A stretch of DNA of 64,000 bases from Candidatus Peregrinibacteria bacterium (lineage in GTDB: Bacteria; Patescibacteriota; Gracilibacteria; Peribacterales; Peribacteraceae): the NCBI GenBank assembly GCA_043798355.1, contig JAZDOT010000010.1, forward strand, positions 53,729 to 117,728. Reading direction: 5' to 3'. Positions 28,988 to 38,295 of this stretch are shown piece after piece (position 1 is the first letter of the stretch; each line of letters opens with the position of its first letter). The notes beneath the pieces are model-generated. The model had not been told where the DNA came from. It was given only the letters and a program-made list of their open reading frames with translations, and ran no database searches. A program made the translations under genes and the position numbers.

Positions 28988-31330
28988 ATGCACCTCGTCA
29001 TCGTCGAGAGTCCGACCAAAGCCAAGACCATCAAGCGGTTCCTCGGGAAAGACTATGTCGTCTTTGCCAGTATGGGGCACGTGCGGGATCTGCCGGACTC
29101 CATGCTCGGGGTCGATACGGAGCATGACTTCGAGCCCAAGTACCTCGTTCCCAAAGACAAGAAGGCTGTCGTGAAGCATCTGCAGGAAGAACTGGATGAG
29201 GCTCTGGATCTCTGGATCGCGACTGACGAGGACCGCGAAGGGGAAGCAATCGGCTGGCACCTGGTGGAAGTATTAAAGAGGAAGAAAAAGCAGCCAGTGA
29301 AGCGCATCGTCTTCCACGAGATCACCGAAGAAGCCATCCGCGAAGCCATAGCGCATCCGCGTGCGATCGATGAGAAACTCGTGGATGCCCAGCAGGCGCG
29401 GCGCATCCTCGACCGCCTCGTGGGCTATACGCTCTCGCCGTTCCTCTGGAGCAAGGTGTACCGGGGGCTCTCCGCGGGGCGCGTTCAGTCCGTTGCGGTA
29501 CGCGTCATTGTGGACCGGGAACGGGAAATCCGCGCGTTTGTGCCGCGCGAGTACTGGTCCGTGACCGCACAACTCAGGAAGAACTCCGGCGGGGAATTCT
29601 CCGCTTCACTGAAGGAACGTAATGGTGAGAAGTGGGAACCGGTAAACGAGGGCGAAGCTCGGGAGGTGCTCGCTGCCTGCAAAGACGCCTCCTATCAGGT
29701 AGCCAAGACGGAGGAGAAAGAACTGAAGAAGACGCCGCCCCCTCCATTCACCACCTCCACCCTTCAGCAGGAAGCAGGACGGAAGCTCGGTTTCTCCGTG
29801 AAGCAGACCATGGTGGTGGCCCAGCAGCTTTATGAAGGCATCAGTCTCGGCAAGGGGGAAGGGAGTACGGGTCTCATCACGTACATGCGCACGGATTCCG
29901 TGAGTCTGAGTACGAAGGCCATGAATGATGCTACGGAAGTCATCATCCGTAAGTTCGGCCGCGAGTACATTCTCTCCGCCCCCCGAACGTATAAAACGAA
30001 ATCCAAAGGAGCGCAGGAGGCGCACGAAGCCATCCGTCCGACGGAAATGGCGCGCACGCCCGATTCCATGAAGGACATCCTCGATCATCAGCAACTCAAG
30101 CTCTATACCCTCATCTGGAACCGGACGGTTGCGACCCAGATGGCCGAAGCGCAGCTCAAGCGGGTCGCTGCGGATATCACATCCGGTATCTATACGTTTC
30201 GTGCGACGGGACAGACGACGATCTTCGACGGGTTTCTCCGCGTCTATGCCGAAGGGCGCGACGAGGAAGCGGAAGAAGCCGAGAAGGATGACGAAGAGCG
30301 AACATTGCCTCCGCTCAGGCAAGGGGAAAATCTTTCCTGCGTCGATCTCATGCCCGAGCAGCACTTCACGAAGCCGCCTCCGCGCTACACGGAAGCGAGT
30401 CTCGTGAAGAAGATGGAGGAGGAGGGCATCGGCCGTCCGAGCACCTATGCGCCGACCATCTCCACCATCCAGCAGCGCGGCTACATCGAGAAGAATGGCA
30501 AGCAGCTGGTTCCCCAGCAGGTCGCTTTCACCGTAATCGATCTCCTCGCGGAGCATTTTCCGGATATCGTGGATCTCTCTTTCACGGCGAAGATGGAGCA
30601 GTCCCTCGACGATATTGCCGAGGGGGACGAAGACCGCGTGAAATTCCTCGCGGGTTTCTACGGCCCGTTCAAAGATCTCATCGCCGTGAAGTCGAAGGAG
30701 ATCCGCAAGGAGGATGTTCTGCAGGAGCGCGAACTCGGGATCGATCCTGAGACGGGGTTCCCCGTGCTCGTCCGCACCGGTCGCTTCGGGCCGTACGTGC
30801 AGCTTGGACGACCGGAGGATTGGAAAGAGAAGAAGCAGAAGCCGAAGAGCGCCTCGCTCCCCTCTTCGTTACAGAAAGGCACGGTGACCATTTCGCAGGT
30901 GATCGGACTGTTGCGGTTTCCGAAGACAGTCGGGGTCATTTCCGGCGAGAGCGTGACGGTGAATCTCGGACGGTTCGGGCCGTACATCCGTTGCGGAAAA
31001 ACGACGGCCGCGCTCCCGAAGGACGTTGATCCCGCTGCGATCGACCTCGCGCAGGCGAAGACGCTCATGGCACAGGCGGCGGACAAGAGGAAGCGCGCCG
31101 CCGAGCCGCTCCGGATACTGGGGGAGGATCCCGAGACGAAAGCTGCCGTACACGTGAAGGATGGCCGCTACGGTCCGTACGTCACCGACGGCACGACGAA
31201 CGTCTCCATTCCGAAGAAATTTTCCGCGGAGACCATTTCCCTTGCCGATGCCGCACAGTTCCTGAAGAAGAAGCGCGAAGCGGGGCCGAGCAGATGGAAG
31301 GGAAGGGGGAAGTGGAAGAAGAGGACTTAG
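28988..31330 (+). CDS. topA: DNA topoisomerase I with C-terminal Toprim_C repeats
   Basis: LVIVESPTKAKTI, ATDEDREGE, SAGRVQS, ITYMRTDS, GRFGPY repeats. Confidence 0.97.
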   Translation: MHLVIVESPTKAKTIKRFLGKDYVVFASMGHVRDLPDSMLGVDTEHDFEPKYLVPKDKKAVVKHLQEELDEALDLWIATDEDREGEAIGWHLVEVLKRKKKQPVKRIVFHEITEEAIREAIAHPRAIDEKLVDAQQARRILDRLVGYTLSPFLWSKVYRGLSAGRVQSVAVRVIVDREREIRAFVPREYWSVTAQLRKNSGGEFSASLKERNGEKWEPVNEGEAREVLAACKDASYQVAKTEEKELKKTPPPPFTTSTLQQEAGRKLGFSVKQTMVVAQQLYEGISLGKGEGSTGLITYMRTDSVSLSTKAMNDATEVIIRKFGREYILSAPRTYKTKSKGAQEAHEAIRPTEMARTPDSMKDILDHQQLKLYTLIWNRTVATQMAEAQLKRVAADITSGIYTFRATGQTTIFDGFLRVYAEGRDEEAEEAEKDDEERTLPPLRQGENLSCVDLMPEQHFTKPPPRYTEASLVKKMEEEGIGRPSTYAPTISTIQQRGYIEKNGKQLVPQQVAFTVIDLLAEHFPDIVDLSFTAKMEQSLDDIAEGDEDRVKFLAGFYGPFKDLIAVKSKEIRKEDVLQERELGIDPETGFPVLVRTGRFGPYVQLGRPEDWKEKKQKPKSASLPSSLQKGTVTISQVIGLLRFPKTVGVISGESVTVNLGRFGPYIRCGKTTAALPKDVDPAAIDLAQAKTLMAQAADKRKRAAEPLRILGEDPETKAAVHVKDGRYGPYVTDGTTNVSIPKKFSAETISLADAAQFLKKKREAGPSRWKGRGKWKKRT

Positions 31331-31356
31331 GACATTGGACGTAGGACTTAGGGCAT

Positions 31357-31734
31357 ATGCTAAAAGACTTTACTCAACTGGAGGCATGGAAAAGAGCGAT
31401 GGATCTTGCGGAAAGAATTCACACGCTCACCAAAGAATTCCCGCGAGAAGAGATCTACGGAGTCACCTCTCAAATGCGCAGAGCTGCGCTGTCGATTGCC
31501 GCGAATATCGCAGAAGGATTTGGTAGATATACCTATGCGGATAAAATGCATAAGTACGTGCAGGCGCGAGGTGAATTGATTGAACTGATGACATTCGTTC
31601 ATTACTGTCGTCGGGTCGGGTACATCAGGATAGATGAAGATCTAGCCTCACTCCTGAACGATTGCACGACGGTTCACAAACTCTTGAACGGGCTGATAAC
31701 GAAGATGGACGCTCTTGATCGTCCTAAGTCCTAA
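31357..31734 (+). CDS. Four-helix-bundle protein flanked by inverted heptamer arrays
   Basis: FTQLEAWK..FPREEIYG..QMRRAALSIAANIAEG; (AGGACTT)x5 at 31322-31356 and (AAGTCCT)x5 at 31719-31753. Confidence 0.92.
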   Translation: MLKDFTQLEAWKRAMDLAERIHTLTKEFPREEIYGVTSQMRRAALSIAANIAEGFGRYTYADKMHKYVQARGELIELMTFVHYCRRVGYIRIDEDLASLLNDCTTVHKLLNGLITKMDALDRPKS

Positions 31735-31806
31735 GTCCCAATCCCCAAGTCCTTCTCTGCTGCATCTCTCCCTCGCACAATGTAAGATGCTCTCAGTTCC
31801 TCTCCC

Positions 31807-31827
31807 CGTAGGCGCGTAGCTCAGTTG
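31807..31827 (+). repeat. 21-bp duplicate of the tRNA-Trp 5' end
   Basis: CGTAGGCGCGTAGCTCAGTTG is identical to 31903-31923. Confidence 0.9.
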
Positions 31828-31828
31828 C

Positions 31829-33412
31829 CTAGCCGAGCGGCAGCGAGGCGAAAAGAATAAAATGTGCTCGGCTGTTGATCTTTATCTCCATAAAACTCTG
31901 ATCGTAGGCGCGTAGCTCAGTTGGTAGAGCACAGGTCTCCAAAACCTGGGGTCGCAGGTTCGATCCCTGCCGCGCCTGCCAATCACGAAAATGCGGTTGC
32001 TGGCGCAGAACGCGCCAGCCTTTTTTGGCTTCGCAGCGCAGCCTTTGCCGTTCCAAAAGAAGGTTCGAGCCGACGCGGAGCAGAAATGCGCGCATTTCCA
32101 GTTTCTTTTCTGATGAGGCCAATTCATTGGCTTGCACTGCGTCTTTGATGAGCATCCGGACAGGTTCGAGCCGATCCGTTCCCCCGTTGCGGCACTGCCT
32201 GATTTGCTCCTCAAGTCCTGATTTGCAATGAAGCAGGTCGCTCTTCTTTGCGCGGTACTCGTCTGTCGTGAGTTCTCCTGCGAGGCGCAAGTCCAGAAGC
32301 GTCTGCAACTGCGCTTCAATATTGCCCTTATCGTCCATCAGTAATTGCGCAGATGCTTGATTCTCTCGCTTCGTGTCTCCGGCTTCGCCGTCGAGTTTCG
32401 CAAGCATCTTTTTGCCGATGTCATCAGGCAGTGAAAACTGTTCGATGGTTTCTTCCATCTGGTCAAAAAGGGCTTCCTCACGGGTATACCGTTCACTGCA
32501 TGAACCCTTTTTCTTCGTGCAGCGGTAGTAGACGTGTCCTTTTTGCCTTTCGGCAGTGATCGAACATCCACAAGTTGCACACTGCATCATACCAAGAAAT
32601 GGGTACTCGTTCTTTCTCTGTCTGTGTTTCTTGCCGCGTCTCACGAAGACCCGCTGCACCTCGTCGAACAGTTTTTTGGGAACGATCGGCTCGTGTACGC
32701 CTTCGTACAGCTCGCCCTTAAACAGCATCAGTCCGCAGTAGATGGGACGCTTGAGAAGTTTTTCGACGCCGGAAGCATAAAGCGCGTTGCCGTGGCCGTT
32801 CCGCAAGCCTTCTTCTTCCAGCATGTTTCTGATCTGCTTGAGCGTGTACTCGCCAGTTGAATAGGTTTCAAAGGCTTTGCGGATGAGCGGCGCCATCTCG
32901 GGGTCGGGATCTATACCCCTGGTCTTGCGGTTGTTGATGTACCCGAGTGGCGCCACGGTCGGCCAGAGGCCACGGCGCAATTTCTGCCTGTTCCCACGTT
33001 TCACGTTCTCGCTAAGATTATCGATGTAATACTTGCTCTGTCCGAAAGCGATATTGAGCATGAACTTGCCCTGTGGGGTGCTTTCGAACCAGAACGTAGG
33101 GAACTTGAGATCAAGGAGCTTTCCGGTGTCGAGCAGGTAGATGATGCGGCCACCGTCGATGCTGTTTCGGGCGAGCCTGTCCGGATGCCATGAGAGTATT
33201 CCCTGTGCTTCACCCTGTTCAATACGGGCAAGCATTTCTGCGAACACGGTTCGGCCGGGTTCTTTGGCGGTTTTGGCTTCCTCGAAGGAAGCCGCGATTT
33301 CAAGGCGTTCTTTTTCGGAATGCTCGGCCAGCTCCGCGAGCTGTGCCTCGATGGAGAGGACTTGTTTATCCTCCGTATCCGTGAATTTACGAACGTAGAT
33401 GAAGTACTTCAT
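31829..33412 (-). CDS. Large serine recombinase, catalytic Ser replaced by Phe; C-terminus reads through the tRNA antisense
   Basis: YVRKFT..Q..SIEAQ, DRLARN, LSENVKRG, PLGY, HEPIV, zinc ribbon CATCG..YYRC. Confidence 0.9.
   Translation of the reverse strand: MKYFIYVRKFTDTEDKQVLSIEAQLAELAEHSEKERLEIAASFEEAKTAKEPGRTVFAEMLARIEQGEAQGILSWHPDRLARNSIDGGRIIYLLDTGKLLDLKFPTFWFESTPQGKFMLNIAFGQSKYYIDNLSENVKRGNRQKLRRGLWPTVAPLGYINNRKTRGIDPDPEMAPLIRKAFETYSTGEYTLKQIRNMLEEEGLRNGHGNALYASGVEKLLKRPIYCGLMLFKGELYEGVHEPIVPKKLFDEVQRVFVRRGKKHRQRKNEYPFLGMMQCATCGCSITAERQKGHVYYRCTKKKGSCSERYTREEALFDQMEETIEQFSLPDDIGKKMLAKLDGEAGDTKRENQASAQLLMDDKGNIEAQLQTLLDLRLAGELTTDEYRAKKSDLLHCKSGLEEQIRQCRNGGTDRLEPVRMLIKDAVQANELASSEKKLEMRAFLLRVGSNLLLERQRLRCEAKKGWRVLRQQPHFRDWQARQGSNLRPQVLETCALPTELRAYDQSFMEIKINSRAHFILFASLPLG
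31906..31981 (+). tRNA. tRNA-Trp (CCA)
   Basis: Acceptor AGGCGCG/CGCGCCT; anticodon loop CTCCAAA; GGTTCGATCC; encoded CCA end. Confidence 0.97.
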
Positions 33413-33429
33413 GGGGCGAACGAGAAGGG

Positions 33430-33693
33430 GGGAGAAATTTGCGTTTGGCCACCGACAAAGGCTGCGCTGCGAAGCCAAAAAAGGCTGGCGCGTTCTGCGC
33501 CAGCAACCGCATTTTCGTGATTGGCAGGGGGTGCTGCAAAAAATCCGAACTGATCTGGGCTGCTAGCGGCGCGGCGGCTGCCAAATTGCGCGCGCCCAGC
33601 CGCACGCGCCGCCGCCGTTTTCCGGAAAACCGCCAAAGAACCCGACCACCGCGTCGGCTCGAACCTTCTTGTGGCCAAACGCAAATTTCTCCC
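33430..33693. repeat. 23-bp inverted repeats enclosing a 218-bp segment with an inverted attP
   Basis: GGGAGAAATTTGCGTTTGGCCAC (33430-33452) / GTGGCCAAACGCAAATTTCTCCC (33671-33693); 33456-33528 = RC of 31975-32047; 33522-33625 = RC of 38905-39008. Confidence 0.92.
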
Positions 33694-33703
33694 GTTCATA
33701 GTG

Positions 33704-33736
33704 TGCTAACTATAGTATGTAGAACTATAGTTAGCA
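33704..33736. promoter_or_regulatory. C-box-like operator
   Basis: TGCTAACTATAGT-N7-ACTATAGTTAGCA perfect inverted repeat, 20 bp upstream of the C-protein gene. Confidence 0.75.
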
Positions 33737-33756
33737 ACTGATACGATTCCTGCTCA

Positions 33757-33969
33757 GTGAAACAGGACATTGTTGCTAGTTTCGGCAGAAAAATACGTGA
33801 TCTTCGCATTGAAGCAGGTTTGTCTCAGGAGGAGCTTGCTGCGCGAACGAAGGTTCATCGAACCTATATCGGAATGATTGAACGAGGAGAGAAAAACATC
33901 ACGATACGAAATGTCGAAAAACTGGCACAGGCTCTTAATATTTCTATCGATCAACTTTTCCGTTTTTAA
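33757..33969 (+). CDS. R-M controller (C) protein, XRE HTH
   Basis: GLSQEELA..VHRTYIGMIERGEKNITI; directly upstream of the REase. Confidence 0.85.
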   Translation: MKQDIVASFGRKIRDLRIEAGLSQEELAARTKVHRTYIGMIERGEKNITIRNVEKLAQALNISIDQLFRF

Positions 33970-33970
33970 T

Positions 33971-34903
33971 ATGCCATCCGTTAGTCATAAATTCCGACGG
34001 CAACTTGATGAGATTCGTGCTTTGCTCTCAGCACTTGGTTTTACCACAAAGCACAACACAGACTTAACTTCATGGGCAATACTTGCTTTGCAGGATGAAA
34101 AAAAGAGAGACACTAAAGCAGGATTCGGCTCATTAGCTAGCGGCGCAACAATCAGAGATATTCTCGACTATTGCCGCAAATGCGGCACTGGATATGCTGA
34201 GAACACACGAGAAAGTCTTAGGAAGCATAGTGTCAAATATCTCGTTCACGCGGGAATGGTTATCAGCAATCCCGATGACCCAAGCAGACCGACGAACTCT
34301 GCGAAGACCAATTATATTTTGCATCCTGAATTTCAAGCCATCTTGAAGTCGGGAGGTGCACAAAGAAAAACACTGATTGAGCAATGGCAAAAACATGCGA
34401 AACAGACGAAGCCAACCGAATGGCGTAGGGATAAATCATTATCTGTCCGATTGAACGGCAAGAGATTCAAGATCCACCCATCGAAGCATAATCTTCTTGA
34501 GAAGTTTGCCATTGAAGTTTTTCTTCCTGCATTGTGTGGAAAATTCGATGTCCTGTATTTTTCAGATACGGATGACAAGTCTCTTCACGTTGATAAAAGA
34601 CTGGAGAGCTATCTCGAAACCAAATTCGATGTGCACAAAAAAATACCTGACATAGTGGTCTCATCAAATGATCGACGGACTTTGTTTTTCATTGAGGCTG
34701 TTGCCTCTTCCGGTGAAGTGGATTATCTGAGGAAGGATGAGATTGACCGGGTGTTTCCTTTGCAAAAAGGAATCCGGAGAAGGTATGTGAGCATGTTTAT
34801 GAATCGCAAGGATTTCCGCAAGTTCAGCGATAGTATCGCGCTTGGAACCGAGGCATGGATTGTAGAAGAGTCGCCGCATGTGATCGATTTATCACCGCTG
34901 TAA
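33971..34903 (+). CDS. BsuBI/PstI-family type II restriction endonuclease
   Basis: YAENTRESLR, NPDDPSRPTNSAKTNY, KIPDIVV..FFIEAVASSG. Confidence 0.88.
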   Translation: MPSVSHKFRRQLDEIRALLSALGFTTKHNTDLTSWAILALQDEKKRDTKAGFGSLASGATIRDILDYCRKCGTGYAENTRESLRKHSVKYLVHAGMVISNPDDPSRPTNSAKTNYILHPEFQAILKSGGAQRKTLIEQWQKHAKQTKPTEWRRDKSLSVRLNGKRFKIHPSKHNLLEKFAIEVFLPALCGKFDVLYFSDTDDKSLHVDKRLESYLETKFDVHKKIPDIVVSSNDRRTLFFIEAVASSGEVDYLRKDEIDRVFPLQKGIRRRYVSMFMNRKDFRKFSDSIALGTEAWIVEESPHVIDLSPL

Positions 34904-36445
34904 TACATAGTCCGACTCCTCTTTGCTCAATCCGTACGCCTCATTTATCTTCCTTTCTAAATCTTGCCAGTTTGTGCGATCGGCTTTATGGAGCTCCTCT
35001 ATGTTATGAGGGATCGGTAGAGCCCGGATTTCCCCGGCTGAAACCTGTGTATTGCCGTTAATCAACCGAAATAACCTATCCCAGAGGGAGCTATTAAGCA
35101 GAAGTTCCATGATATTAAGCGGAGGAGCTGCATCATCCTCACGAACCATGTAGTTCAAATGGTTTTCAAGGAAGAAACCGCCTTTCCCTGTTTTTACCAG
35201 TGCCGCCTCAATTCTATGTCGCTGCTCTTTCGCTGAAATGCGCTTGAATACCACAGTATCCTGATTGAGTATTTCCGGTGTTGTTTCTTTACAGTCTCTC
35301 ATAGTCTTAGGGCGACTCTTATGCTCTTTGTTTGGATTGAATGTGAAACGCGAAACCTGATGCGGCCAATACAAAGGACGAAAGCCTTTTCCTTCTTCAT
35401 TCGACAAATACTGTTTTCTTCTGAACGCCACAACAGGTCCGGTAGAAACACGAAGTCCGCTATCCGAAACCTTTTTGAATCCATTCTTAAAGCACCTTTT
35501 TATAAGCAAGGCATCAAGCTCTGTTTCGGGGATACAAATAATGCTTGAATTCCAAAACACGATATCTCGACCTATAGCAAATTTGGAAATTTCGAATTTC
35601 CCGTTGGTGATTGCTGTTCCCACAATCACGCTATCACTGCTTGGAGTCGTATTGCTCAACGTCAGCAAAATTTGCTCCTGTAAGACATCCATAAAAGCTT
35701 TATCTCTCTCAAAGAGCGTTACTAATTCTTCCGTACTAACTTGGTTTGTCAGAATATCCCTGAGGCGACGGAAGTAGGCACCGGAAACAAAACTTTTTGG
35801 GATGATATAGCCAAGTTTTCCGCGTGGCTTTAAATACTTTATTCCAGCTTCCACGAAAGACGCATAGAGATTTGGATGCCCCAAGTTTTGCTTCGGGTTA
35901 GTTTTGAGATATGGCGGATTGCCTAAGACGCAATCGAATTGCATATTGGAATCAAACAGACCACCAACTTTCTCGAGCATATCGGCTTCTCGTATGTGAA
36001 AGGTTTCTTGCATGGAAATCTTGTAACCGTTTTTCGCAAGACATCCTCGGACATTGGCGAGCGCAATTCGCACAAGAATAGGATCAATATCAAAACCGTA
36101 AATGGACGCCTGAATATGGCTTAAATCCATCGATTTTTGAATCATTGTTTCCAATGCACCGAGTAAAAACCTTCCGCTTCCGCAAGAAATATCGGCAATA
36201 CTTTGTTCCGGCGTGTATTGAGTAGATCGAATGAGATATTTCACAATTGCTTTCGGCGTGAAGAATTGGCCGTGTCCACTTCGGTATTCTTTGTCAGTTA
36301 TTTTGCAATAGTACTCGCCGAGTCCGTCCCACTGATGCGGATCGAATGGAAGCTCTGTCTTTTTCTTTGCACCACAAACACCATGTACAGCCTCATAGGT
36401 TTCGCATAGTGATTGCCAGCAGCTGAGAGAATGTGCATTAGACAT
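34892..36445 (-). CDS. N6-adenine DNA methyltransferase (gamma class, PstI/Eco57I-like)
   Basis: GQFFTP, DISCGSGRFL, GNPPY, STGPVVAFR, ENHLN, GNTQVSA. Confidence 0.92.
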   Translation of the reverse strand: MSNAHSLSCWQSLCETYEAVHGVCGAKKKTELPFDPHQWDGLGEYYCKITDKEYRSGHGQFFTPKAIVKYLIRSTQYTPEQSIADISCGSGRFLLGALETMIQKSMDLSHIQASIYGFDIDPILVRIALANVRGCLAKNGYKISMQETFHIREADMLEKVGGLFDSNMQFDCVLGNPPYLKTNPKQNLGHPNLYASFVEAGIKYLKPRGKLGYIIPKSFVSGAYFRRLRDILTNQVSTEELVTLFERDKAFMDVLQEQILLTLSNTTPSSDSVIVGTAITNGKFEISKFAIGRDIVFWNSSIICIPETELDALLIKRCFKNGFKKVSDSGLRVSTGPVVAFRRKQYLSNEEGKGFRPLYWPHQVSRFTFNPNKEHKSRPKTMRDCKETTPEILNQDTVVFKRISAKEQRHRIEAALVKTGKGGFFLENHLNYMVREDDAAPPLNIMELLLNSSLWDRLFRLINGNTQVSAGEIRALPIPHNIEELHKADRTNWQDLERKINEAYGLSKEESDYVLQR

Positions 36446-36459
36446 ATTGCAACGATTGA

Positions 36460-37080
36460 TCAGATCTTCGAAAAAAGTATACATCGAACAATACCATGAA
36501 TTTTTAGAGAATCTGGATCCTCCACAACATGGCTCTTGTAGCGAGCATTCTCTGACTCAAGAAGAATGCGCTTACCGGAAGTCGTGTATCGCTTGATCTT
36601 GGTTTCGTTGTTCTCATCGCAAACAATGACCTTTCCTTCCAAGTTGTGTCTTCCATCAATATACGGTTCCACAAGAACAACATCGCCAGCGTGAATGCGT
36701 GGCTCCATGGAATCGCTCTCGGCACGCACTAAAAATGCATTCTTTAATTTTGCGGGTATGAAACTTGACCGCACAGGCAGCCGTTCTATTACATGCTGTT
36801 CGTTATCAATACCTTCGCCACAGGCAGCCAGTGCCAAAAGAGGCAGAAAAGTGAACGAGTCTTCGGATTCATCCTCGCCAAACACGGTGAAGTGAGCCGG
36901 ATTATCGGGATCTCTTTTTACGAGACCTCTCTCCTCAAGCTGTTTCATATGATGGACAACTTGGCTCTTCGATGACGCTCCGATGGCTTTTCGTAACTGC
37001 TCGAGGGAATATCCCTCGTCTTCGGATATATTCTTCAATACCTCGAGGAGCCGTGCCTGAAAGCGATGGAGGGGTCTCAC
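36460..37080 (-). CDS. LexA-like repressor (wHTH + S24 peptidase)
   Basis: SLEQLRKAIGASSKSQVVHHMKQLEERG, AACG cleavage loop, SDSMEP, IKRY, LESEN. Confidence 0.85.
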   Translation of the reverse strand: MRPLHRFQARLLEVLKNISEDEGYSLEQLRKAIGASSKSQVVHHMKQLEERGLVKRDPDNPAHFTVFGEDESEDSFTFLPLLALAACGEGIDNEQHVIERLPVRSSFIPAKLKNAFLVRAESDSMEPRIHAGDVVLVEPYIDGRHNLEGKVIVCDENNETKIKRYTTSGKRILLESENARYKSHVVEDPDSLKIHGIVRCILFSKI

Positions 37081-37186
37081 CGCTCGATCATATATACAGA
37101 CGTACAAATTTACAAGACGTTATTGACATCGTCTAGTATTCCTGTACCCTGTTGTGCGGCAAATACTTCTTTCCTCTCAATCTCTC

Positions 37187-37393
37187 ATGGCAATAGATGC
37201 TTCAGGAATGAAAGGCTATCGTCCTCGCAATAAAACCGGGGAACTCCGTGACAAGCGCGACGACACGCTCATGGGCACAATCGAAAAACAGTACAAGCGT
37301 GATTTTGATGTTCGCGACGATATGAAACTGGGCAATTTCCTCAAACGCGAAGGTTACGAGTCCCTCAATGATCTCCTTCACAACCAACACTGA
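37187..37393 (+). CDS. Small uncharacterised protein coupled to the CD-NTase
   Basis: 68 aa; TGATG overlap with the next gene; TTGACA-N16-TACCCT upstream. Confidence 0.7.
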   Translation: MAIDASGMKGYRPRNKTGELRDKRDDTLMGTIEKQYKRDFDVRDDMKLGNFLKREGYESLNDLLHNQH

Positions 37394-38295
37394 TGACGAC
37401 CACGCTCACCCCTGCCTTGAACCTTGACTTACTCGCCGCAGCACCGAGCATCGGTGAGCAGAATGCCGCTGCTACAACGCACACAATGATCCGAACATTC
37501 ATCGAAAACGAATCTACGCTGAGTAAATATTCCATTGAGACTCAGCTGCACGGCTCGTATAAGAACAGCACGAATGTTCGTCGGGAAAGCGATGTCGATA
37601 TCGGAGCAATGAGTGAACAGATATTTCTCTACGACATCAGTGGTTTGCCAGCGGATCAAGTGGCAAGGTTTCATGAGACTACATCTGCCGGATCCTTTAC
37701 CTTTCAAGAATATCGGAATGACGTCCTTGCAAGCCTGAGACGGAAATACGGATCGGAGGTCATTGATGGAAATAAAGCCATCACGATTTCGGGGAATACC
37801 TACCGACTCTCAGCCGATATACTTCCATGTGTTGAATTCCATCATTACTGGGATTACATGCGTTCCTCGGGAAATTATGCAAAAGGCATTGCGTTCTTAA
37901 CAAAGGATGGCAAGCGCGTTGTGAACTTCCCACAGCAGCACTTTGAGAATATGACAACGAAGAATACGGCTACAAATGAGTATTTCAAGGGATGTGTCCG
38001 AATCATGAAGCGTATCCGGAACGATCTTATCTGCGATAGAGTCATCAGTGAAAAGCACTCCCCATCGTGCTATATCGAATCTTTGCTTTGGAATGCGCCG
38101 AACGTCCTGTTCTCAGGTGGTTATAGTGCCGCAATGCGAGGAGTGTTAGCACATCTCTACAAAACGCTCGACGACGGCAGTGCCACTTCCTATGTTCAAG
38201 CGAATAGGGTGTATGTGCTATTCCACTCCGAGTTCTGGTCGATGGGTCAGGCAAAGGAACTGATTCTTTATGTTTGGAGCCGCATCTTCCCATGA
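37393..38295 (+). CDS. CBASS cGAS/DncV-like nucleotidyltransferase (CdnE-like)
   Basis: HGSYKNSTNVRRESDVDI, GNKAI, ADILPC, NFPQQH, KN..T..FKGCVRIMK, IESLLWN. Confidence 0.9.
   Translation: MTTTLTPALNLDLLAAAPSIGEQNAAATTHTMIRTFIENESTLSKYSIETQLHGSYKNSTNVRRESDVDIGAMSEQIFLYDISGLPADQVARFHETTSAGSFTFQEYRNDVLASLRRKYGSEVIDGNKAITISGNTYRLSADILPCVEFHHYWDYMRSSGNYAKGIAFLTKDGKRVVNFPQQHFENMTTKNTATNEYFKGCVRIMKRIRNDLICDRVISEKHSPSCYIESLLWNAPNVLFSGGYSAAMRGVLAHLYKTLDDGSATSYVQANRVYVLFHSEFWSMGQAKELILYVWSRIFP

Follow-up and report, generated by a model that had tools for sequence, protein, structure and literature searches.

Large serine integrases are prized in genome engineering for a one-way reaction that needs short sites only. 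Small elements such as Tn4451 and Tn5397 are moved by a large serine recombinase alone (TnpX and TndX, respectively), via a circular intermediate and without a separate directionality factor. The ssrA-specific islands of Dehalococcoides, reportedly described by McMurdie and colleagues in 2011, are said to have a serine recombinase which inserts cargo at the 3' end of a small RNA gene. The Hin and Gin segments are inverted by small serine invertases (~190 aa, with a C-terminal HTH), which work on 26-bp hix and gix sites together with an enhancer and Fis. On the replicating 2-micron plasmid the tyrosine recombinase Flp serves copy-number amplification.

The window analysed here, which is the whole stretch of 64,000 nucleotides (C39:53729-117728 of a source genome of 1.38 Mb in 48 contigs, which was searched as well), contains an island of 7.0 kb (31975-39008), inserted at the 3' end of a tRNA-Trp(CCA) gene. 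The family to which its large serine recombinase belongs is like the phage and island integrases (SPbeta SprA/YokA, Listeria A118/LI, phiC31, Bxb1) in its domains, its short core and the 5-bp motif shift between attP and attB. It differs from them in that attP lies inside the last codons of the recombinase gene and in that it targets the 3' ends of tRNAs, which are read through the T-loop. We know of no large serine integrase system with an internal second attP, whereas the segment 33453-33670 of the window is an intact attP in inverted orientation. Neither are we aware of a described internal copy of the joined ends in Tn4451 or Tn5397, and as far as we know the targets of these elements are not tRNA genes.

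The island shares with the 2-micron circle and flip-flop replicons two unique segments between long, identical inverted repeats which hold the recombinase target and are kept identical. In contrast to the 2-micron circle, it has a serine integrase, lacks a replication gene and has one of its repeat copies divided by integration. With the Hin and Gin segments it has in common a recombinase gene inside a segment flanked by inverted recombination sites. However, the enzyme is an integrase of about 480 aa with the domains of large serine recombinases (LSR), the arms measure 76-140 nt (76-104 nt in the window), the sites are of att type, and the features of the small invertases are absent. The portions of the literature that full-text searches brought up, those of a candidate paper on ocean integrative elements included, do not describe any serine-integrase island that has an inverted attP in its interior. 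The island family is apparently undescribed.

The island at tRNA-Trp and its inverted module

The target gene, tRNA-Trp(CCA), is located at 31906..31981 on the plus strand and was recognised by ARAGORN and by the Rfam tRNA model (71 bits), the sole Rfam match at gathering level. Its final 7 nt (31975-31981) are the crossover core CCTGCCA, here called O, at attL. The same 7 nt recur at attR (39002-39008) and are the only short core common to both ends. At attL the core is followed on the P' half-site side by the X arm (31982..32050, plus strand), which codes for the C-terminal tail of the recombinase, matches the module as an inverted repeat and contains a terminator-like hairpin by consensus match (31999-32019). 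At attR the W arm and the core together cover 38905..39008 (plus strand, P half-site side), with a GTTCGG motif located 5 nt farther out than the T-loop of the tRNA. Directly abutting the W arm is patch m' (38862..38904, plus strand), an inverted copy of nucleotides 77-119 of the recombinase gene with 86% identity. A search of relatives for an empty site found the right flank (39009-39500) in 0 of 40, and the island boundaries therefore rest on the core repeat and the family pattern.

Two repeats were seen on the host side of the tRNA gene. A 28-nt direct repeat (89%) relates 31800-31827 to 31896-31923, the lead-in of tRNA-Trp plus its first 18 nt, at a distance of 96 nt upstream of the gene; it may be the remnant of an older rearrangement at that tRNA. 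Just upstream of tRNA-Trp (31313-31758), arrays of a 7-nt unit (GGACTTA-like) form mirrored inverted repeats.

The cargo (33757..38870) comprises six genes, assigned by their domains: an XRE/C-protein HTH (33757-33969), a PstI/BsuBI-type endonuclease (33878-34903), an N6 methylase (34892-36484, minus strand), a LexA/S24-like protein (36460-37107, minus strand), a SMODS nucleotidyltransferase (37393-38295) and a Cap15-type effector (38274-38870). The LexA/S24-peptidase-like regulator sits between the restriction-modification (R-M) pair and the CBASS-like pair of SMODS and Cap15 proteins, and may provide damage-responsive control of the defence cargo.

The recombinase gene occupies 31829..33412 on the minus strand, with its ATG at 33412. 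Its reading frame continues through the X arm and the core into the antisense strand of the tRNA, and the tail coded by the X arm is conserved across three paralogs, namely those of the window and of contigs C24 and C25 of the same genome. The protein comprises a resolvase domain (PF00239, 2.4e-17), a recombinase domain (DBD1, PF07508, 3.6e-14) and a zinc ribbon (DBD2, PF13408, 2.1e-07). The closest solved structure is that of the SPbeta integrase (E 1.5e-7), and the A118 integrase matches weakly. In phage and plasmid collections no match above 30% identity and no close relatives were found, and the scores against the NCBIfam models for XisF and Ccr are far below the cut-offs.

As the preliminary description had already implied by speaking of a recombinase in need of serine repair, the catalytic serine is missing: the window reads RKFT, with Phe in its place, where RKS[ST] stands in 71 of the 72 family sequences that include the N-terminus. 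The nucleophilic serine is kept in the paralogs on C24 and C25 and in the closest relatives of the window, L011 and L127. Because of this substitution the recombinase of the window is probably dead and its arrangement probably frozen, short of an action of some other enzyme or of host recombination. The repeats of the window are still 95-100% identical despite the loss of the serine. A second serine recombinase is encoded in the window at ~46304-47347 (minus strand; G000:C39:100032-101075) and is 43% identical to the C24 enzyme over residues 1-331. It is presumably the second recombinase which the preliminary description mentions; short forms similar to it are found on C34 and C43.

Several short stretches of the recombinase gene, all on the minus strand, have partners elsewhere in the island. 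Patch c (32053..32078, in the ..VGSNLL.. codons; nt 1334-1361 of the gene), which is also found in relatives, and patch n (33253..33274, the KTAKEPG codons; nt 139-160 in the window, nt 137-156 in most relatives) have inverted copies in the module, while the inverted copy of patch m (33294..33336; ~nt 87-119) adjoins the arm at the right end. A hairpin within the coding sequence, hp (33275..33293), lies exactly between m and n. Throughout the family its stem of ~7-9 bp is kept by compensatory changes, which come at a cost, since they alter amino acids. Finally, q (33232..33241) pairs with q-bar (32080..32089), a conserved and covarying long-range inverted repeat of 7-18 nt in the family which closes off the gene body.

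The module itself (33453..33670, 218 nt, given on the plus strand) consists of the intact attP and two patches of the recombinase gene. It starts with the inverted X copy (33453-33521), followed by the core TGGCAGG (33522-33528; in reverse complement, the final 7 nt of tRNA-Trp), the inverted W copy (33529-33625), the n copy (33626-33647) and the c copy (33649-33674), which extends 4 nt beyond 33670 into the neighbouring palindrome arm. The palindrome arms B (33430..33452, adjoining the recombinase start codon) and A (33671..33693, cargo side) are 23 nt each, 100% complementary and 218 nt apart.

Every repeat listed in the preliminary description was found again at its stated position. The reverse complement of the right arm (38905-39008) is found at 33522-33625 over 104 nt with 100% identity, and the exact 73-nt repeat of the left arm proved to lie inside a 76-nt match of 99% identity (33453-33528 against 31975-32050). 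Both long arms overlap at TGGCAGG and so reconstitute an intact, inverted attP. The two patches that had been reported from the N- and C-terminal coding regions are slightly longer than described, with 22 nt at 95% for n (33626-33647 against 33253-33274) and 26 nt at 96% for c (33649-33674 against 32053-32078), and the pieces follow each other as X-core-W-n-c, the order they would have if the island ends were joined. The claim that removal of the segment restores a perfect palindrome of 38 bp holds for the palindrome, but not for its size: cutting out 33453-33670 leaves 46 bp, and 38 bp require one TGGCCA common to both arms. Perfect inverted repeats of 76-104 nt within 9 kb cannot arise by chance.

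Related islands in other genomes

The same genome contains two more islands with intact recombinases, whose DNA is ~70% identical to that of the window: one on C24 at tRNA-Glu and one on C25 at tRNA-Pro. Their arms are ~71% identical to those of the window. Both carry the same module, with palindrome arms of 22-23 nt, and each module copies the ends of its own island at 95-100%: the own left arm over 79 nt at 100% and the patches over 21 and 24-25 nt at 100%. The C25 module matches its own right arm over 110 nt at 95%, while the C24 contig ends before the right arm. A search of the whole genome for dispersed, MITE-like copies found the module only inside these three full islands.

A search with an alignment of the three recombinases revealed at least 308 matches in contigs of a collection with one genome per species and at least 489 in metagenome contigs. 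From each collection 80 loci were kept (160 in all; at least five of them are the same contigs in both), and 124 of them, with at least 340 nt upstream of the gene, could be scored. The module is present in its canonical form in 104 of the 124 loci and partially in seven; three loci are cargo-flipped, one is recombinase-only, and nine have no module within 450 nt, although in one of the nine (L087) it is displaced farther upstream. Palindrome arms were found in 107 of the 124 loci. Throughout the family the module lies 15-50 nt upstream of the start codon, and the boundaries of module and patches are constant among relatives whose proteins are only 50-60% identical. The module is thus a standard part of a large family of tRNA-targeting serine-integrase islands and not a stray insert.

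These numbers also bear on two points raised in the preliminary description. A hitch-hiking, non-autonomous mini-circle that landed in a palindrome does not agree with a segment that has the same place and the same internal boundaries in 104 of 124 relatives, with seven partial cases, and is never dispersed. The empty palindrome that was to be looked for in related elements is likewise absent, since an uninterrupted palindrome upstream of the gene occurs in 0 of the 124 scorable loci.

To go by the titles of their records, the hosts are mostly metagenome-assembled genomes (MAGs) of candidate phyla (Patescibacteria). Further hosts are MAGs of Nitrospira, Thermodesulfovibrio, Gammaproteobacteria, Margulisbacteria and Omnitrophota as well as the isolate Schleiferia thermophila DSM 21410 (L019). 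The recombinase genes of L019, L020 and L025, from the Schleiferia thermophila isolate, a Thermodesulfovibrio MAG and a Patescibacteria MAG, are 99.8-99.9% identical and are located at tRNA-Ser(GCT), tRNA-Ser(CGA) and tRNA-Ser(GCT), respectively, which is due either to very recent transfer across phyla or to mis-binning. The family is huge, it carries defence and other cargo across phyla, and it reads the near-universal T-loop and 3' end of tRNAs. The cargo differs between islands with near-identical recombinases. In 19 small islands examined, with cargo down to 0.5 kb, no conserved accessory gene was found; recombination directionality factors (RDFs) lack a common signature.

That the structure is an artefact of assembly or amplification limited to the contig of the window, the chimera which the preliminary description had named as a possible refutation, has a negligible probability. 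Such repeats do break assemblies: many contigs stop 100-400 nt upstream of the gene, and 33 of the 160 loci have less than 340 nt there, as would be expected. However, the same structure is found at three places in the genome and at more than 100 independent loci, obtained with different assemblers, on contigs of 685 and 771 kb and in the isolate genome, and this recurrence in independent assemblies refutes the artefact.

The repeats evolve together with their partners. The recombinase genes of the window and of L011 are 90.6% identical, and of the nine differences in X-O-W between these two islands eight are present in both copies of each island. The n patch of the module tracks synonymous variants of the gene, with at most three mismatches per 20-nt window in 45 of 52 loci, usually in the first base only. 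Over all inverted pairs 118 mismatches were counted in ~12,900 positions (34 G.T on the sense strand, 37 A.C and 47 transversions). The low number of mismatches between partners indicates that their identity is renewed much faster than the islands diverge. Module, palindrome arms and patches evolve with their partners at the DNA level and without RNA wobble bias. A function as RNA structure, or as a leader antisense to the own mRNA, was ranked low: stable folds (z -5.0 and -3.1) and the geometry would suit it, but there is no G.U bias on either strand, the patches are direct in L080 and L032, and Rfam recognises nothing besides the tRNA at gathering level.

Concerted change of this kind could also be the mark of a frozen accident, in which, in the ancestor of the family, an excised circle shortened by deletion entered a palindrome in front of the gene by recombination and persists without any function, by self-correction of inverted repeats (gene conversion, template switching) and because only the all-inverted form escapes deletion. 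We regard such an origin as quite improbable. The pieces are a circular permutation of the joined ends, the junctions lie at hairpin bases (hp, q:q-bar, palindrome) where template switches are expected, the mismatches have no strand bias and flipped forms decay, all of which would fit. On the other hand, the module is kept with constant boundaries across many phyla and between recombinases that are 50-60% identical, only one of the 124 loci (L080) has lost it while keeping an intact gene, and hp is maintained in spite of the amino-acid changes it costs. Constant retention, a single loss and a costly hairpin argue for selection and against an accident. Several attempts to obtain the layout in one event, starting from an inverted or a tandem dimer, also failed.

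The spare site as attP and the choice of targets

In serine integrases the motif for the outer DNA-binding domain sits nearer to the centre in attB than it does in attP, by ~5 bp, according to a rule deduced for these enzymes and given in passages of a published study (PMC11722253). The islands show the corresponding offset. In 28 of the 29 loci with both motifs, the distance of a GTTC[GA]A motif from the point where island and tRNA diverge is exactly 5 nt greater in the W arm than in the tRNA. In the window, the distance from the T-loop-like motif to the CCA end is 29 nt in the W arm and 24 nt in the tRNA. This +5 offset agrees with the half-site rule for attP and attB and shows that the module is a genuine attP.

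At several loci (L029, L030, L036, L103 and others) the identity between spare attP and attR ends after ..CACCG, ..CACCGC or ..CACCGCC, before the full CCA, which places the crossover in the end of the acceptor stem and not in the CCA itself. Past the core, the flank on the host side is not visibly conserved between islands whose arms are nearly identical. L011 and the window have an almost identical attP and different tRNAs, tRNA-Glu(CTC) and tRNA-Trp, respectively, and their targets share only the core CTGCCA. One type of enzyme seems to accept several tRNAs. At the far ends of L034, L094, L153 and L038 the sequence that borders attR on the host side belongs to another, older island, as its X arm; the islands thus form tandem pile-ups, and an occupied attL can be reused as target.

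Rearranged forms and possible roles of the module

With bars for reverse complements, the order of parts in a canonical island, on the strand that codes for the recombinase, is host - O - W - m-bar - cargo - A - c-bar - n-bar - W-bar - O-bar - X-bar - B - ATG ... m - hp - n ... q ... q-bar - c - X - O - tRNA(antisense), where X-O-W is attP and A and B are the palindrome arms. All internal repeats of this form are inverted, and a single flip turns arms and patches into direct repeats. The preliminary description had considered an invertible switch. Its geometry is borne out by the window, where the recombinase gene (31975 to 33528) and the cargo (33522 to 39008) each lie within perfect inverted repeats. 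Flipped forms occur in assemblies of relatives.

The orientation states of these relatives were taken from assemblies, mostly of short reads. In L032, L101 and L165 the cargo is inverted, so that the far end reads W-n-c-B and m adjoins W-bar. L076 is the cargo-flipped form minus the stretch between the two m patches, which are then direct, and its recombinase is without residues 1-29. L080 contains two elements: a recombinase-only form (host-O-W-n-c-B-ATG) and, at a neighbouring tRNA-Ser, a 360-bp scar (host-O-W-m-bar-first 120 nt of the gene, inverted-A-X-O-tRNA), which requires a flip of the recombinase segment as well as a deletion. L145 and L147 read gene-c-X-O-W-n-c-B-cargo and could be a recombinase-flipped state, an isomer of the circle or the result of an X repeat traversed wrongly. 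Such errors at the repeats could underlie any flipped form in short-read contigs, and these two especially. The rare variants fit an inversion of cargo or recombinase followed by loss between repeats that had become direct. By the geometry, a flip would make the two segments separately excisable, as claimed earlier; cargo-flipped relatives exist, and L076 and both L080 elements are what a flip with subsequent deletion predicts.

We tentatively favour, at somewhat less than even probability, a mechanism in which the inverted repeats recombine and the recombinase and cargo segments can flip, the all-inverted state guards against deletion, and flipped states split into parts. The repeats would recombine by homologous recombination or gene conversion, possibly also by action of the integrase on the spare attP and attL, and the island would be a two-segment flip-flop, geometrically like the 2-micron circle. 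Since every internal repeat is inverted in the resting state, recombination would lead to inversions only and to no deletion. Once a segment has flipped, the patches and the palindrome arms would be direct repeats, and the island could come apart into a recombinase-only part, a cargo-only part or a scar. Several points stand against a flipping island. Homogenisation of patches of 19-28 nt by ordinary recombination is hard to explain, and canonical serine integrases are, to our knowledge, not known to recombine attP with attL or attR. Unproductive tetramers and synapsis of the SPbeta integrase on two attP sites, mentioned in parts of the study cited above (PMC11722253), bear on any model with two attP sites per circle.

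Flipped states are rare (3-5 of 124 loci), and a tRNA replacing the W arm upstream of the gene, as integration via the spare site would produce, was found in 0 of 56 loci. Both observations indicate that the module is mostly static. It could then be a cis-regulatory element, the spare attP in the 5' leader being an operator or roadblock for autorepression of the recombinase as well as an insulator, and inversion an occasional side effect. We consider such a role rather unlikely, though worth weighing. Its position, always 15-50 nt upstream of the start codon, would suit it, as would an arrangement unchanged in more than 90% of the loci and the XRE repressor gene that often adjoins arm A. In the window the sole sigma-70-like promoter match facing module and recombinase (33709..33737, minus strand), a consensus match only, lies beyond the module, within a palindromic operator region that serves the divergently oriented HTH gene as well. 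Inside the module is a terminator-like hairpin, followed by a T run (33504-33484, minus strand), and the X arm would carry the terminator of the tRNA. However, binding needs ~50-60 bp only, while identity spans arms of 76-140 nt with sharp and conserved boundaries, and regulation leaves the patches n, c and m and the palindrome arms unexplained. By eye the terminator hairpin is not conserved in C24, and promoter and terminator calls alike are consensus matches.

The layout permits a further reading, in which the module acts as a splint in single-stranded or unwound DNA or in a three-site synapse, bridges both ends, joins the cores of attL and attR and so allows excision without a separate directionality factor. 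Both copies of W start 0-1 nt from the hp boundary in 17 of 17 loci, one following m-bar and the other n-bar, and with junctions this exact every partner on one strand can pair without gaps. W:W', m':m, hp and n:n' would form a four-way junction on one strand with no unpaired bases, X:X' would meet c':c and the palindrome arms in a three- or four-way junction, and q:q-bar would close the gene body; the missing conserved accessory gene in islands with cargo as small as 0.5 kb would also agree with it. But the support is purely geometric, the pairings are mutually pseudoknotted, and a history of nested recombination yields the same geometry. Furthermore, we know of no serine recombinase that uses folded single strands. 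We regard a splint as highly improbable.

From its gene content the family seems to manage without a directionality factor and yet keeps an inverted spare attP. A bolder proposal, which we hold to be very doubtful, is that the spare attP is a DNA-encoded substitute for that factor: it would pair or synapse with both ends via three- or four-way junctions fixed by hp and q:q-bar, so that the lone integrase could invert its own gene and excise the island, and the patches would let recombinase and cargo modules leave or be swapped as circles bearing an attP. If true, a serine integrase would here operate a cassette system comparable to that of integrons. The role of the module, once worked out, could reveal a new control of integrase direction or of cargo exchange. 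New here are, among the structural parts, patches n, c and m as found throughout the family, the palindrome arms, the exact junctions of both, hairpin hp and the q:q-bar pair. Also new are the +5 rule for the T-loop, the absent RNA wobble bias and the interpretation of rare variants as products of flip and subsequent deletion.

Several other candidates were considered and set aside. For a junction promoter across the core, as in Tn4451, only weak hexamers were seen by eye, which are not conserved in C24 and C25, and the promoter scan called none. A gene switched on by tRNA read-through after a flip is weakened in the window, since the terminator-like hairpin of the X arm precedes the gene in both orientations. 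A fusion peptide of n and c is in frame in the window and out of frame in C24, and the junctions of the palindrome are not at the core, which argues against a pseudo-attB.

The repeats described here would explain frequent assembly breaks beside tRNA genes in genomes of candidate phyla. None of the public sequencing runs searched for the element contains it (best share 0.10), and four runs gave contigs of relatives only. In one contig (run X2, 16.8 kb), from which no conclusion was drawn, a 28-nt tRNA-like stretch, the short side of the join, leads to position 33614, and the R-M cargo follows at ~93% identity.
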